NCBI GenBank assembly: GCA_951406725.2
Contig: OX597836.1
Span: 49,290,001-49,354,000 of the forward strand
DNA from: Octopus vulgaris
Taxonomy: Eukaryota
Direction of reading: 5' to 3'
DNA length: 64,000 nucleotides
Shown here: positions 16,539-52,592 of the stretch, one piece after another
Layout of the letters: each line of letters opens with the position of its first letter
How positions within the stretch are numbered: the stretch's first letter is position 1
The notes under the pieces: generated by a model
What the model was told of the DNA's origin: nothing
What the model saw: only the letters and a program-made list of their open reading frames with translations
Database searches by the model: none
Program-made: the position numbers and the translations under genes

Positions 16539-16681
16539 TACGACGTGTTTCCACACAGTTTCTGTCTACTAAATCCACTCACAAGGCTTTTGTCGGCCTG
16601 GGGTGCCGCACAATGAGACTGAACCGGAAATCGCGAAGCTGCCCCAAGCCAGCTTCTCACCCGCACAGCCCTGCCTGTGCC
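16539..16681 (-). mobile_element. SINE family A, 5' half
   Basis: Minus strand ggcacaggcagggctgtgcgggtgagaagc...ccggttcagtctc...aagccttgtgagtggatttagtagacagaaactg. Confidence 0.75.
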
Positions 16682-19600
16682 ATCACCGCCACTAGCACCA
16701 TCACCGCCACTAGCACCATCACTACCACTAGCACCATCACTACCACTAGCACCATCACCGCCACTAGCACCATCACTACCACTAGCACCATCACTACCAC
16801 TAGCACCATCACCGCCACTAGCACCATCACTACCACTAGCACCATCACTACCACTAGCACCATCACCGCCACTAGCACCATCACTACCACTAGCACCATC
16901 ACTACCACTAGCACCATCACCGCCACTAGCACCATCACTACCACTAGCACCATCACTACCACTAGCACCATCACCGCCACTAGCACCATCACTACCACTA
17001 GCACCATCACTACCACTAGCACCATCACTACCACTAGCACCATCACCGCCACTAGCACCATCACTACCACTAGCACCATCACCGCCACTAGCACCATCAC
17101 TACCACTAGCACCATCACTACCACTAGCACCATCACCGCCACTAGCACCATCACTACCACTAGCACCATCACCGCCACTAGCACCATCACTACCACTAGC
17201 ACCATCACTACCACTAGCACCATCACTACCACTAGCACCATCACTACCACTAGCACCATCACTACCACTAGCACCATCACTACCACTAGCACCATCACCG
17301 CCACTAGCACCATCACTACCACTAGCACCATCACCGCCACTAGCACCATCACTACCACTAGCACCATCACCGCCACTAGCACCATCACTACCACTAGCAC
17401 CATCACTACCACTAGCACCATCACTACCACTAGCACCATCACCGCCACTAGCACCATCACTACCACTAGCACCATCACCGCCACTAGCACCATCACTACC
17501 ACTAGCACCATCACCGCCACTAGCACCATCACTACCACTAGCACCATCACTACCACTAGCACCATCACTACCACTAGCACCATCACTACCACTAGCACCA
17601 TCACCGCCACTAGCACCATCACTACCACTAGCACCATCACTACCACTAGCACCATCACCGCCACTAGCACCATCACTACCACTAGCACCATCACTACCAC
17701 TAGCACCATCACTACCACTAGCACCATCACCGCCACTAGCACCATCACTACCACTAGCACCATCACCGCCACTAGCACCATCACTACCACTAGCACCATC
17801 ACTACCACTAGCACCATCACCGCCACTAGCACCATCACTACCACTAGCACCATCACTACCACTAGCACCATCACCGCCACTAGCACCATCACTACCACTA
17901 GCACCATCACTACCACTAGCACCATCACCGCCACTAGCACCATCACTACCACTAGCACCATCACTACCACTAGCACCATCACCGCCACTAGCACCATCAC
18001 TACCACTAGCACCATCACCGCCACTAGCACCATCACTACCACTAGCACCATCACTACCACTAGCACCATCACTACCACTAGCACCATCACTACCACTAGC
18101 ACCATCACTACCACTAGCACCATCACCACCACTAGCACCATCACCGCCACTAGCACCATCACTACCACTAGCACCATCACTACCACTAGCACCATCACCG
18201 CCACTAGCACCATCACTGCCACTAGCACCATCACTACCACTAGCACCATCACTGCCACTAGCACCATCACCGCCACTAGCACCATCACTACCACTAGCAC
18301 CATCACCGCCACTAGCACCATCACTACCACTAGCACCATCACTACCACTAGCACCATCACTACCACTAGCACCATCACTGCCACTAGCACCATCACTACC
18401 ACTAGCACCATCACCGCCACTAGCACCATCACTACCACTAGCACCATCACTACCACTAGCACCATCACTACCACTAGCACCATCACTACCACTAGCACCA
18501 TCACTACCACTAGCACCATCACCGCCACTAGCACCATCACTACCACAAGCACCATCACCGCCACTAGCACCATCACTACCACTAGCACCATCACCGCCAC
18601 TAGCACCATCACTACCACTAGCACCATCACTACCACTAGCACCATCACTACCACTAGCACCATCACCGCCACTAGCATCATCACTACCACTAGCGCCATC
18701 ACTACCACTAGCACCATCACCGCCACTAGCACCATCACTACCACTAGCACCATCACTACCACTAGCACCATCACCGCCACTAGCACCATCACTACCACTA
18801 GCACCATCACTACCACTAGCACCATCACCGCCACTAGCACCATCACTACCACTAGCACCATCACTACCACTAGCACCATCACTACCACTAGCACCATCAC
18901 TACCACTAGCACCATCACCGCCACTAGCACCATCACTACCACTAGCACCATCACTACCACTAGCACCATCACCGCCACTAGCACCATCACTACCACTAGC
19001 ACCATCACTACCACTAGCACCATCACTACCACTAGCACCATCACTACCACTAGCACCATCACTACCACTAGCACCATCACCGCCACTAGCACCATCACTA
19101 CCACTAGCACCATCACTACCACTAGCACCATCACCGCCACTAGCACCATCACCGCCACTAGCACCATCACTACCACTAGCACCATCACTACCACTAGCAC
19201 CATCACTACCACTAGCACCATCACTACCACTAGCACCATCACTACCACTAGCACCATCACTACCACTAGCACCATCACTACCACTAGCACCATCACCGCC
19301 ACTAGCACCATCACTACCACTAGCACCATCACTACCACTAGCACCATCACTACCACTAGCACCATCACCGCCACTAGCACCATCACTACCACTAGCACCA
19401 TCACTACCACTAGCACCATCACTACCACTAGCACCATCACTACCACTAGCACCATCACTACCACTAGCACCATCACTACCACTAGCACCATCACCGCCAC
19501 TAGCACCATCACTACCACTAGCACCATCACCGCCACTAGCACCATCACTACCACTAGCACCATCACTACCACTAGCACCATCACTACCACTAGCACCATC

Positions 19601-19800
19601 ACCGCCACTAGCACCATCACTACCACTAGCACCATCACTACCACTAGCACCATCACTACCACTAGCACCATCACCACCACTAGCACCATCACTACCACTA
19701 GCACCATCACCGCCACTAGCACCATCACTACCACTAGCACCATCACTACCACTAGCACCATCACTACCACTAGCACCATCACTACCACTAGCACCGTCAC
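16679..19800. repeat. 3.1-kb minisatellite, 18-bp unit ACTAGCACCATC-AC(TA/CG)CC, about 173 copies
   Basis: Direct reading; explains the 1161, 1093 and 1052-aa ORFs (TSTITT, PLAPSL and MVLVVV hexapeptides). Confidence 0.97.
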
Positions 19801-20604
19801 CCCCACTACAACCACACTTCTTGCACCACTACCATCGCCGCCATCATTACGCCTCGACCACAGTTACTAACCTGCAACCACTACTACTCCTACCACCCAA
19901 ACTAGAATCACTTCTACTACTACTACTACCTATACCTTCCAAAGCCTCTCTACCATAGCCATCACCTATACTACACTACGACTAACACTAAACATCGTCA
20001 ACACCACCGTACTATTACAACCGCCACCACCATCATCATCATTATCATCACCATCACTACGCCTCCTCCACTCTCATCCCAATATCTGTCCAACACGATT
20101 GCTATCGCCATCACCACCACCACCTCCACCACCACCACACAGACGCAGTGTCGTGGTTGCTTGACATGCTAGAAAGAGTAGCCAACGCTCTCATCCTCTC
20201 AGCTCGTATCCCCTCATCTTCAAACTGGGGCATTACATTGGTTAATGTAAGTCTTATGAGATACGGCTGTCTTGAAAACAAAAAAATGATAGGATGGTCA
20301 TGGCTGGAACGTCTTTTAAATAATAGATCTGCACACTTGTGGTCAGGGGCTAGGGATAAGACAAACGCTGCAACTACAATACAACAACTACCTCCCACCA
20401 CCACTAAGTCAACTTGCAACACAATTCACGCACGTCAAGACATGTTTTATCGGATGGATTTTTTTTACTGTTTTTATTTTGTTTTTGTTTTATGAAGTGA
20501 GATCAATGTTTTAAGGTTGACAATGACAAAATCAATTTGATAAGATTGCTGTGTGTTCTGTGGCTATAGATATACAGATGTCTGTCTTATACATAACAGT
20601 ATTG

Positions 20605-32407: not shown

Positions 32408-32731
32408 ACAACAAAATGGTTCCACCTCCCACAACAAAATGGTTCCACCTCCCACAACAAAATGGTTCCACCTCCCACACCAAAATGGTTCCACCTCCCA
32501 CACCAAAATGGTTCCACCTCCCACACCAAAATGGTTCCACCTCCCACACCAAAATGGTTCCACCTCCCACAACAAAATGGTTCCACCTCCCACACCAAAA
32601 TGGTTCCACCTCCCACAACAAAATGGTTCCACCTCCCACAACAAAATGGTTCCACCTCCCACAACAAAATGGCTCCACCTCCCACAACAAAATGGCTCCA
32701 CCTCCCACAACAAAATGGCTCCACCTCCCAC
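32408..32731. repeat. 23-bp minisatellite, 14 copies (aca[a/c]caaaatgg[t/c]tccacctccc)
   Basis: Period of 23 from 32408; no spacers. Confidence 0.96.
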
Positions 32732-45560: not shown

Positions 45561-45621
45561 ATTCGAACCCTCACCCTATCGTAGGAGTAATTTCTATAAC
45601 ACAAGCTCTTCCGCCTTTAAG
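45561..45621 (+). other. Probable 61-nt non-coding 5' UTR exon of the bZIP gene
   Basis: Strong acceptor tcttttttttctttccag| before 45561 and donor aag|gtaaac after 45621; contains no ATG. Vertebrate NFIL3 also has a non-coding leader exon and a single coding exon. Confidence 0.55.
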
Positions 45622-46104
45622 GTAAACAGAGATATCTTTATATTGTTGTTGTTTAGTCCACAAGTCAGTCTTCGTTGACTTGACCATGGCTCTCCAAAGG
45701 GGTCACTATCGACATTTGGGGGTGGGGTCGATGACACTATTCAAGTTGGGCAATAATGCACTTCTACTTAATGATTCGGAAATTACTATTTTTTAAATCT
45801 CATAACAAGAGATATTCAGCAACTTAATTATTATTATTTATTTATTTTCTTGTACAGGTCTGGGAGTCAATGAGGGGTCAGGGGTTCTATGAAGGGGTTA
45901 ATGGTCTAAAAAGTTTGGACTAGACTTGTGAATGATCCAGTTGGTTCCATCCATGACCTTCTCATCTATCTTCATGCATTTATCATCCATTATCTTTTTT
46001 TTAAGACAGCTGTGTGCTATTTAAGGAAGCGATGCTGGCATGAGTTCGATGGGTCTTAATTCCAGTTGTTTCTTATTGCCTGCTCCTGTTCCCTACAACT
46101 TACA

Positions 46105-46400
46105 CTGGTCATTTTGGCTTGGTTTCTACAGCCGAATGCCCTTCCTGTCACCAACCACTTCACAAAGTACTGGGGCCATTTCCGGGTGGCACTTTATTAC
46201 TAGAGAAGTTGAGCAGCCCTTGAGGACTGATGTCTCATCATCATTGTTTTAACGTCCGTTTTTCCATGCTGGCATGGGTTGGATATTGAACAGGAACTGA
46301 TGAGCTAAAGGACTTCATGTTCTAATGTCTGCTTTGACAGGGTTTCTATGGCTGAATGCCCTTCTTAATGCCAACCACTTCACAGAGTGCACGGGGTGCC
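46105..46400 (-). mobile_element. Two fragments of a retroposon 3' region (ggttggcattaagaagggcattcagcc...acggacgttaaa..(gat)n)
   Basis: 46235-46280 is the reverse complement of 43655-43699; a second partial copy lies at 46110-46200. Confidence 0.7.
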
Positions 46401-46790
46401 TCCATTTCACTATTTTCATTGTTTATCTCCTGTAGTATTGTTACATGTTGGTATCATTTAGTATTGTGTTATGGTACTATGGATTGTGATATTATATATA
46501 AAGATACTGTGTAACAGCATGTTACCCCTGTGCAACATGTTGCACCGTGTAGTTTCATGTGGTGGTTCCCTGTATTACAATATTATGTTTTCCATGTATT
46601 ATGTCCATGACCTGCTACCTTGATTTATCTGGGATTTCTTCCTTTTTTCAGATCCCTATTCTGTTGTGCATCCAATCTCACCAATAATGCTGCATCAAGG
46701 TACCAAGTTGACGAAGTCGAAGGAGCAGCCATCTGCTGCGCATGAGACCTGTGGTCAGAGACAGTAGGGGGAGTTGTGTCACTTGTGATC

Positions 46791-48882
46791 ATGGACAATT
46801 CAGTCACTTACGGGTATTCATATTATCAAAATCAGTCCACAATGGTTATCAATAGCAACACTAACAGCAACCACACCACCACTTCCACCACCACCAACAA
46901 ACAACAACAACAACAACAATAGCAACAACAACAACAGCAACAACAATAATGGTCAGCCAGGGAACAGTGAATCAAAAGATGACTTTTCTGATTGTGTTAG
47001 TTCTGGGGAAGACAGTATTCGCGATATTTCCGTACAAGGAGACATGCATGGTTTCATTCCATCAAGAAAGCAGCGTGCTTTCACTCCTGATAACCGAAAA
47101 GACCAGTGTTATTGGGAAAAGCGACGCAAAAACAACGAAGCGGCCCGAAGGTCCCGTGAGAAACGAAGGTTACACGACATGGCGCTTGAGAAACGCATTG
47201 TAGAGCTTTCTCGGGAGAGCTGCATCCTTCGAACCCAGCTCTATGCTGTTAAGAAGCGATACGGCATCCCTCGTGAGGAGCCGATTATTTTGGACAACGA
47301 AGAGCAAGAAATTCTTGATAAAGATCTTCAAGCTCTCAATGCAGCCAGTGCCAGTGCAGCTGCTGCAGTGTCTCCAATGCCACCAAATGCAGTGTTGAAC
47401 AGTCTGAAAATCCGGCGGGCGTCGCCTGTTGGGTTGCCTTTAGTTTCATCGACTGGCTCCAACGCAGCTGCCTCCGTTCCAAATGTGACCAACAATAGCA
47501 ACAGCAATGATACACGTAGTGTGATCTTCTCATTACCAAACAACTCTGAATCCCTCTCAGGGAACACTTCAGCTCCTGCCACAATGTCAACAATTAAGAG
47601 TCACAAAAACAGCACCGTTGCGACTACGTTATCATCAATCCAGCACCAATATAGCTTTGAACCAGCCCTCGCTGTGAAACAGGAACCAGTTGACGACTTT
47701 GAGAGCACAGTCCTAAACACTAGCGAAAGTCAAGGCTCGGTAGATTACCCATCGTCAGAAAGCTACACAACATCTTCAGAGACATTTGAAACTACTACCT
47801 CAGCTCTGATGATGGGTAAAGACAATGCAGAGAACCATATAATCTCAGGCAAGAGCCTGGAGAGTTCTTGGTATCATGGGTCGAGAGAGCCCTTAGATAA
47901 TGGGAAATTAGTTTCAGCGGCAGGAGACCTTGAACAAAAACCTTTACAGCTTGTAGTAAAACGTCGTAAAGTGGAACCTGAACATTTTGCTCATTCACAG
48001 GAACCAGTGGGGGAATATCATAAAAACAGTAACATCAACAACAACAACAACAACAATACCGTCACAACCACCACCCCTAACAACAATAACAACCACCTCC
48101 ACCATCACCAACAGTCACAACAACAACAACCACCACCACCACCACAACAAAAATCTCCAGTTGTCTCTCCGATGGTGCCAAGCCCTCACACACTGAGCAT
48201 CAGTGAGAGTCCCATCCTTCGAACATCCATCTCTACATTACCATTGAAACTACGTCATAAGGTTTCACTTCCTGACCACACCATGTCGTCAGTACAGTTG
48301 TCTTCTCCCACGGCCACAGTTACGTCATCACCTCCATCATCGTCATCATCATTTTCATCAGCATCTGCTTTCACTCAGAACGAGGCCCCAGCAACTCCTT
48401 CAACCCTTCACAATGGTCTCACGCAGCTTTCCGAAATCGCTCTGTCCCATAGCAATCCATTACCTTTACTTAAGAAAGATGTCATTAATGGTGTCAACCT
48501 GCTATCAAGATGTAACGGGAGCAACAGCAGCAGCAGTAACAGCAGCCTGGACGGCAACGTGAACGATGCCAGTGACTTAGAAATGAAACCAAGCGAACAT
48601 GAAATGCTCAGTCGCTTGGACCCAAAGTATGTCGAACGCAGAAAGCGCAACAACGAGGCTGCCCGAAAGTGTCGTGAAAACAGGAAGGCATTGACCAAAA
48701 TGCGAGAAGTCAAGTCCAGCTATCTCGAGTCCGAGAACGGCAAACTTCGTAACGAGATGAATGACCTGCAGGAAGAAGTGAAACAGCTGAGAGACCTGCT
48801 TGAGAAGAAACGACTGGAGCAAGGTTTCAAGGGGAAATTGTCTGATGCAGACGCTCATAATAGCATCACCATTAACACATAA
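46791..48882 (+). CDS. NFIL3: NFIL3/E4BP4/vrille-like transcription factor with two bZIP domains (612 aa from ATG 47044; about 696 aa from ATG 46791 if one A at 46899-46901 is removed)
   Basis: bZIP1 RKQRAFTPDNRKDQCYWEKRRKNNEAARRSREKRRLHDMALEKRIVEL matches the NFIL3/vrille signature; LPLKLRHK repression-region motif; bZIP2 DPKYVERRKRNNEAARKCRENR...LESENGKLRNEMNDLQEEVKQL. Exon acceptor ccttttttcag| at 46651/46652; TAA at 48880-48882. Start position is less certain than gene identity. Confidence 0.9.
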
Positions 48883-48934
48883 CAATAACAAATTCACAAA
48901 AAAAAAAAACACGATAGTGATTATAAAAAAGAAT

Positions 48935-50384: not shown

Positions 50385-52592
<2,208 letters not shown>

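Follow-up and report, generated by a model that had tools for sequence, protein, structure and literature searches.

The large exon analysed here encodes an NFIL3/E4BP4/Vrille-type protein with two bZIP domains, and comparison with its homologues indicated that the octopus protein is, with high confidence, an orthologue of NFIL3, E4BP4, Vrille and nematode atf-2 in an ancestral bilaterian two-bZIP form. Orthologues in at least eight phyla have this layout. Within this ancient two-bZIP form of NFIL3 the octopus gene is unexceptional, and the observation is broader than the first-pass annotation, made from this DNA alone, had supposed. bZIP factors are usually treated as one-domain, obligate-dimer proteins, and a two-bZIP chain conserved in at least eight phyla raises the question of how self-pairing is avoided or used.

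The octopus gene and its two domains

The window (the whole 64,000-nucleotide stretch of Octopus vulgaris DNA analysed) contains a stop-to-stop frame on the + strand (46789-48882) of 697 aa, free of internal stops, whose closest named relative was an O. bimaculoides protein (90% identity). The features of the gene are listed below (P0001, the octopus protein).

45561..45621, + strand: small 5' exon, apparently non-coding; X2, X9 and X11 each have one contig linking 45559-45619 with 46650
45622-46651, + strand: GT..AG intron after the small 5' exon, its ends read from the sequence, with the acceptor AG at 46650-46651
46652..48882, + strand: large exon with the entire coding region; RNA-like contigs cover 46650-46846, 46955-48019 and 48159-48897 or further
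46791..46900, + strand: probable true N-terminus, in a frame that differs from the main ORF; identity with O. bimaculoides P0003
47065..47265, + strand: bZIP1, NFIL3/Vrille type, aa 93-159 of P0001; Pfam, PDB, domain tree and AF2 helix 106-157
47941..47952, + strand: P-L-x-L motif, aa 385-388; P, L and L invariant in 52 aligned two-bZIP proteins
48238..48261, + strand: LPxKLRxK motif, aa 484-491; in 45/52 two-bZIP proteins and 42/45 other homologues
48412..48444, + strand: short amphipathic helix, aa 542-552; AF2 helix 546-552, low pLDDT
48619..48813, + strand: bZIP2, aa 611-675; Pfam, position table over 125 pairs and AF2 helix 612-684

The single uninterrupted exon with two bZIPs that had been described from the sequence was borne out by the stop-free frame, by the Pfam matches and by RNA-like contigs over both domains. 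X2, X9 and X11, small RNA-like contig sets that come from three studies, contained the spliced 5' join and covered both bZIPs; they are called RNA on a guess, for which that join is the one piece of backing, and the large run X15 includes intron sequence. Contig cover of the 3' UTR extended to ~49500. No contig of X2, X9, X11 or X15 spanned both bZIPs because contigs break at a repeat (48019-48159), those on either side of it overlapping by ~23-30 letters by our own arithmetic. Removal of bZIP2 by splicing, which had been named as the outcome that would overturn the observation, was not seen among the 15 joints listed, with 46 others outside the listing: none of the 15 skipped sequence between bZIP1 and bZIP2 in an RNA-like run, and RNA-like contigs reached bZIP2.

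The natural start is probably the ATG at 46791, which lies outside the main frame. Translation from this ATG gave 34/34 residues identical to O. bimaculoides P0003 compared with 3/34 for the main frame, implying that the CAA repeat near 46899 has slipped by one base; this slip, likely an extra base, is probably an assembly error. A G after 46766 is absent from the window but present in 4/4 runs (a local indel error), and base errors at 46766 and ~46899 would account for the late start (47044) of the annotated protein P0002. The two-bZIP observation is independent of this N-terminal frame question. Two short upstream ORFs precede 46791, one running from ATG 46687 to a stop at 46765-46767 and the other from ATG 46742, annotated in frame in O. 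bimaculoides, to a stop at 46786-46788 once the extra G seen in 4/4 runs is counted.

The HMMER-type check proposed for the two domains found two matching stretches in the octopus protein with either Pfam model, bZIP_2 (E = 1.5e-21) or bZIP_1 (E = 2.6e-9). The AF2 model contained long confident helices at 106-157 and 612-684, with a mostly low-confidence linker. Assignment of bZIP1 to the NFIL3/E4BP4/vrille type stood, its best PDB match being NFIL3 (8k86, E = 2.2e-18), far ahead of other bZIPs, and in the domain tree it fell among first/single NFIL3/Vri domains. Judged only by its conserved DNA-contact residues, the protein would bind the D-box as a dimer and repress transcription. Zipper 1 stops after d3 and has Ser at a2, the usual Asn position, as had been pointed out. 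The further suggestion that this Ser marks a different pairing code was rejected: a2 was Asn in 97% of 125 in-register pairs, the octopus Ser is a local change, and it therefore offers no explanation of the two-bZIP architecture.

bZIP2 looks like a functional domain, intact and strongly conserved. Its description as complete, with N-x7-R and four heptad leucines, was correct: N621-x7-R629 is in register with Leu d1-d4 (646, 653, 660 and 667), d0 being Arg. The best Pfam bZIP_1 stretch was 616-670, and the AF2 helix was continuous over 612-684 (block pLDDT mostly 82-97). The octopus basic region carries Tyr-25, Arg-21, Asn-18, Ala-15/-14, Cys-11 and Arg-10, followed by Arg d0, Ser a1 and Asn a2. 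Across 125 pairs (those left of 150 doubles once 25 duplicated, short or out-of-register ones were removed), conservation was near complete at Tyr-25 (99%), Arg-21 (99%), Asn-18 (100%), Ala-15 (99%), Ala-14 (93%), Cys-11 (99%) and Arg-10 (100%), and extended to zipper 2 (Asn a2 99%; Leu d1-d4 96-97%; Arg, not Leu, at d0 94%). Mean identity of bZIP2 versus bZIP1 was 76% versus 70% in a mollusc-dominated set of 68 proteins and 58% versus 58% in all 125. The Jun/Fos-like Cys that had been noticed in the bZIP2 basic region is the AP-1-type Cys at -11, a single residue that does not establish AP-1 membership despite its presence in 99% of the 125. The 50 residues upstream of bZIP2 showed little conservation across 52 proteins, and an ESM Atlas search with bZIP2 returned generic bZIP clusters only (best 0.88).

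The 'PAR-like' label given to bZIP2 applies, and weakly so, to zipper 2 alone, the assignment of the whole domain being ambiguous. With zipper 2 only as the query, the top PDB match was the PAR protein VBP, a weak match (E = 0.012), followed by the bZIP of ATF-2 (E = 0.32). The whole-bZIP2 profile scored NFIL3 (35.8 bits), Fos (32.2) and C/EBPbeta (32.1), with no full PAR bZIP among the PDB matches, and the single-sequence bZIP2 query ranked ATF-2, FosB and Fos first. The idea of a repressor and an activator (VRI and PAR) united in one chain found no support, as the whole of bZIP2 is not clearly PAR.

The linker between the bZIPs, described as ~450 aa and S/T/N/Q-rich, is 450 aa long with 39% S/T/N/Q; what needs correction is that three conserved motifs lie inside it. 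The P-L-x-L motif is a possible co-repressor docking site. LPxKLRxK, common to the octopus protein, insect Vrille and vertebrate NFIL3, is presumably linked to the NFIL3/Vrille repression domain. A pattern related to the helix at aa 542-552 occurred in 39/52 two-bZIP proteins, being conserved in the molluscan ones, and in 0/45 other homologues. Spacing between bZIP1 and bZIP2 across two-bZIP proteins was 171-611 aa. In Schistosoma proteins (P0265/P0271/P0272) the P-L-x-L motif reads P-L-D-L-S, a form we take to be the CtBP co-repressor docking motif.

Distribution, origin and partial loss of the second domain

Two N-x7-R motifs were present in 52/97 homologues from the first search, and all 19 named proteins among those 52 were molluscan. 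Searches with bZIP2 and with a profile, an HMM recount and naming by cluster look-up added further doubles. These included the lophotrochozoans Lingula (brachiopod), Tubulanus (nemertean) and the flatworms Schistosoma, Dicrocoelium and Spirometra; the nematodes Trichuris, Trichinella, Steinernema and Caenorhabditis angaria; and, among deuterostomes, the echinoderms Acanthaster, Asterias, Anneissia and Diadema, the hemichordate Ptychodera and the amphioxus Branchiostoma. Pfam found two stretches in 6 of these further named doubles checked directly, among 13 proteins scanned. A further ~20 doubles were 'annelid-like', the one source of named annelid evidence being PMC9939569. The HMM count over 289 proteins gave 154 with both domains, 114 with the first only and 21 with the second only, the last being mostly fragments plus Syphacia and a Pristionchus group. 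The lophotrochozoan survey that had been called for was thereby positive in molluscs, a brachiopod, a nemertean and flatworms, and the layout was also found outside Lophotrochozoa. An octopus-specific novelty was rejected, given orthologues across at least eight phyla. The possibility of a molluscan novelty fell too: the layout is not mollusc-specific, and the text passages of PMC9939569 had already recorded it for VRI candidates of a starfish and an annelid.

In a tree of 73 domains and 61 columns, drawn from 30 chosen doubles and 13 chosen singles, a 100/100 branch separated 30/30 second domains from the 43 first/single domains; this tree was inferred without other bZIP families (no PAR) as an outgroup, from second domains picked by an HMM seeded on second domains. 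Their position on one branch argues against separate duplications in each phylum, and the grouping points to a single origin of the second domain before the protostome-deuterostome split.

A related element was detected in the tails of single-bZIP proteins. The zipper-2 HMM reached at least 10 bits in 43 of 109 such tails (114 singles minus 5 whose tails were shorter than 60 aa), including those of arthropod Vrille and vertebrate NFIL3, while 0/2180 shuffles (max 6.8) and no reversed tail (max 3.3) did so. Zipper 2 outscored zipper 1 in 43/43 of these tails, and the remnant outscored the same protein's own first zipper in 42/43. The remnant is a zipper without a basic region, located near the C-terminus. 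Among the named vertebrates, scores were 24.7 bits in lamprey, 27.8 in Myripristis, 14.7 in Sardina and 11.2 in Latimeria; outside vertebrates they were 23.9 in Folsomia, 19.5 and 15.3 in two mites and 25.9 in a Ptychodera paralogue. Profile-profile comparison of the remnant favoured zipper 2 (P 97.2, E = 4.7e-11, 29 columns) over zipper 1 (P 81.7, 16 columns). A post-hoc pattern, written after hits were seen, occurred in 68/109 tails and 0/5450 shuffles at a median of ~20 residues from the C-terminus, with five Drosophila species and a frog included. The Drosophila remnants were found by that pattern only and scored below 0 on the zipper-2 HMM; Diptera were near or below zero except Corethrella (6.8). 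In the tail screen of singles the remnant was absent from four teleost nfil3 paralogue-type proteins, Styela and a rotifer. An HMM built from remnants preferred zipper 2 in 117/150 doubles, although not in octopus (3.6 vs 3.9) or the three nematodes shown; three intermediates were named for exclusion from it. Intermediate forms were seen in amphioxus, which kept N-x7-R with substitutions, and in P0184/P0254, which retained only the start of the basic region. The C-terminal element of single-bZIP Vrille and NFIL3 is likely to be homologous to zipper 2. If their C-terminal helix is indeed a zipper-2 leftover, two much-used model systems, clock loop 2 and NK/ILC development, would gain a defined element open to mutation. 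The text passages of the literature covered assign no role to this helix.

The mirror case was found in Pristionchus-type atf-2 (P0285-P0289), where basic region 1 was visibly decayed in 4/5 sequences, with zipper 1 and the whole of bZIP2 kept; the fifth sequence is partial, without the basic region 1 stretch. By the nematode first-domain HMM, zipper 1 was retained and the N-x7-R core gone in 4/5. Pfam on P0286 (the one checked) found the C-terminal bZIP only, and P0285 gave a full-length alignment with C. angaria ATF-2 (E = 2e-39). Either basic region can evidently be lost while both zippers persist.

Several lineages showed finer variation. In Ptychodera flava (P0164, P0172) both bZIPs are complete in one paralogue and the remnant zipper alone is present in another, and Nucella and Babylonia have two double-domain paralogues each (P0032/P0048 and P0046/P0049). 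In the cephalopod-like P0030, P0038 and P0154 both zippers were unusually diverged and the basic regions intact, which suggests relaxed or shifted dimerisation in some cephalopods. In some nematode, flatworm and other proteins (P0166, P0168, P0169, P0279 and P0283) short indels altered the spacing of basic region and zipper in one of the domains, so that the register needed for DNA binding would be lost.

Pairing of the two zippers

Taken as a whole, these observations are best explained, in our view and with modest confidence, by an ancestral two-bZIP NFIL3 orthologue acting as a bivalent, doubly zipped D-box repressor. The zippers would pair mainly like-with-like (1-1 and 2-2), and two chains would join in a doubly zipped dimer whose two DNA-binding heads hang on a long disordered tether. 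Both heads would be expected to read D-box-like half-sites, such a dimer might occupy two sites at a distance from each other (avidity or looping), and the linker motifs would recruit co-repressors while it holds DNA. Loss of either basic region would leave a working bZIP dimer with an extra dimerisation clamp, which would account for several tolerated losses. Like-with-like pairing itself we infer as an evenly balanced call; it is favoured because a 1-1/2-2 dimer survives loss of a basic region, whereas a dominant 1-2 closure would be DNA-blind. The g/e charges of zipper 2 are self-complementary (octopus, 6 attractive and 0 repulsive) and the zipper cores differ, with Leu in zipper 1 versus Arg in zipper 2 at d0 and Ile versus Ser at a1. 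Over 125 proteins the g/e code scored homo equal to hetero in 98, favoured homo in 21 and hetero in 6.

Asn, conserved at a2 of zipper 1 (97%) and of zipper 2 (99%), allows 1-2 pairing, and with it the single-chain heterodimer proposed by the first-pass annotation. Zippers 1 and 2 of one molecule would then close via the linker into a monomer that binds a single asymmetric site, and forms without one basic region would be autoinhibited. The octopus hetero g/e pairing is also favourable (4 attractive, 0 repulsive), and a disordered linker with spacings of 171-611 aa would have the length for a parallel arrangement of the zippers and would increase their local concentration. ESMFold2 gave 'weak support' to bZIP1-bZIP2 (0.39 versus 0.01 for the best control), with contacts agreeing at least 97% and partner pLDDT at least 82; its mark was reached by 51/78 solved complexes and 2/108 mismatches, and at 0.60 or below by 5/78 solved complexes and all 4 passing mismatches. 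However, the bZIP is a textbook fold, the pass may be memory, the controls were not other zippers, and only the 1-2 pair was folded. The unlike zipper lengths and d0/a1 core residues also speak against closure. The losses, too, are better matched by like-with-like pairing, since a closed form whose basic region 2 (arthropods, vertebrates, the Ptychodera paralogue) or 1 (Pristionchus) had decayed would be DNA-blind. We regard this explanation as unlikely. A fold search with the full-length AF2 model returned 2 chains (Z <=4.5) and was uninformative on helix-helix pairing.

We consider it similarly improbable that the protein is a two-partner adaptor, with bZIP1 as a D-box homodimer module and bZIP2, or the orphan zipper, pairing with other bZIPs such as PAR/CES-2 to tether or titrate an activator. 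The VBP match of the zipper-2-only query fits such an adaptor but is weak, and to our knowledge mammalian E4BP4 has been reported not to heterodimerise with PAR proteins, which counts against it. On the other side, heterodimerisation activity is listed for C. elegans ATF-2, which is reported to dimerise and act together with CES-2 (PMC12521169, PMC4232591, PMC13355510), although the text passages covered do not specify which ATF-2 zipper binds CES-2, and Daphnia Vri lacking its bZIP still partly activated its target, which the authors ascribed, in the passages covered, to heterodimers (PMC5667737). Far less probable still is a second domain that is an artefact, a read-through, a recent two-gene fusion or a functionless relic. 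The window does hold at least one local indel error (the G after 46766) and probably a second, and both domains never lay on one contig; nevertheless, the frame is continuous, the layout recurs in orthologues of at least eight phyla, basic region 2 keeps its DNA-contact residues at 93-100% conservation and bZIP2 is the only intact bZIP in Pristionchus. Conservation has already largely refuted this explanation.

Returning to the doubly zipped dimer, we tentatively extend it to single-bZIP relatives: the ancestral bilaterian NFIL3 may have been a two-bZIP, two-site protein whose zipper 2 still serves for dimerisation or partner binding in the C-terminal helix of NFIL3/E4BP4 (vertebrates) and Vrille (insects); the zipper pair would usually be kept and either basic region would be dispensable. 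If this two-site reading is true, a 'single-bZIP' clock and immune repressor has a hidden second interaction surface shaping avidity, looping or PAR antagonism.

Comparison with known factors and other observations in the window

The D-box/V-P-box repressors NFIL3/E4BP4 and Vrille resemble the octopus protein in bZIP1, LPxKLRxK and the N-terminal position of that bZIP. The octopus protein differs in its second complete bZIP, whereas many NFIL3/Vrille proteins keep only a zipper remnant without a basic region. In the text passages covered, NFIL3/Vrille are described with one bZIP and a repression domain (PMC4629104).

Among relatives of nematode ATF-2 (C. elegans K08F8.2, Q21361, an NFIL3/Vri homologue), the orthologues of C. 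angaria, Steinernema, Trichinella and Trichuris share the two domains; their second domains group with octopus bZIP2, and the linker is shorter than that of octopus. UniProt presumably marks two bZIP domains in C. elegans ATF-2 (Q21361). The ATF-2 literature, in the passages covered, speaks of 'a bZIP domain' and is silent on a second-domain role.

PAR activators (TEF/VBP, HLF, DBP, PDP1, CES-2) share the Tyr-25/Arg-21/Asn-18 basic-region signature with NFIL3 and bZIP2, and zipper 2 is closest to the VBP zipper (small a1, Asn a2, acidic g and basic e). bZIP2 is unlike PAR proteins in Cys-11, Arg d0 and its embedding in an NFIL3 chain, and NFIL3, Fos and C/EBP lie close together in the whole-domain ranking.

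The VRI candidates of Asterias rubens (starfish) and Magelona mirabilis (annelid) were stated to carry two bZIPs in one sentence that calls them an exception; the text passages of that paper give no phylogeny, mechanism or remnant link (PMC9939569). The Asterias cluster was recovered here (P0180, P0252) with the same layout as octopus, P0180 having two Pfam stretches. Neither a second bZIP nor a C-terminal remnant was mentioned in the text passages of PMC4736632, PMC8638415, PMC12521169, PMC4232591, PMC4629104, PMC11668059, PMC5667737 or PMC13355510. No description in print of the single origin, the remnant zipper or the mirror loss was found in the open-literature text passages covered. Within these passages the two-bZIP layout had been noted in passing, no characterisation of it was found, and its origin, remnant and mirror loss are apparently new.

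A D-box/E-box scan of the window gave scattered matches, without a control or a known start site. Repeats were also apparent: the intron holds a high-copy dispersed repeat (46100-46410) with very deep X15 cover, a 3-kb array of an 18-bp unit at ~16650-19830 carries long spurious ORFs on both strands, and a 23-bp tandem repeat occurs in 14 copies at 32408-32731. A T run of 287 bases at 51540-51826 may be an assembly artefact.
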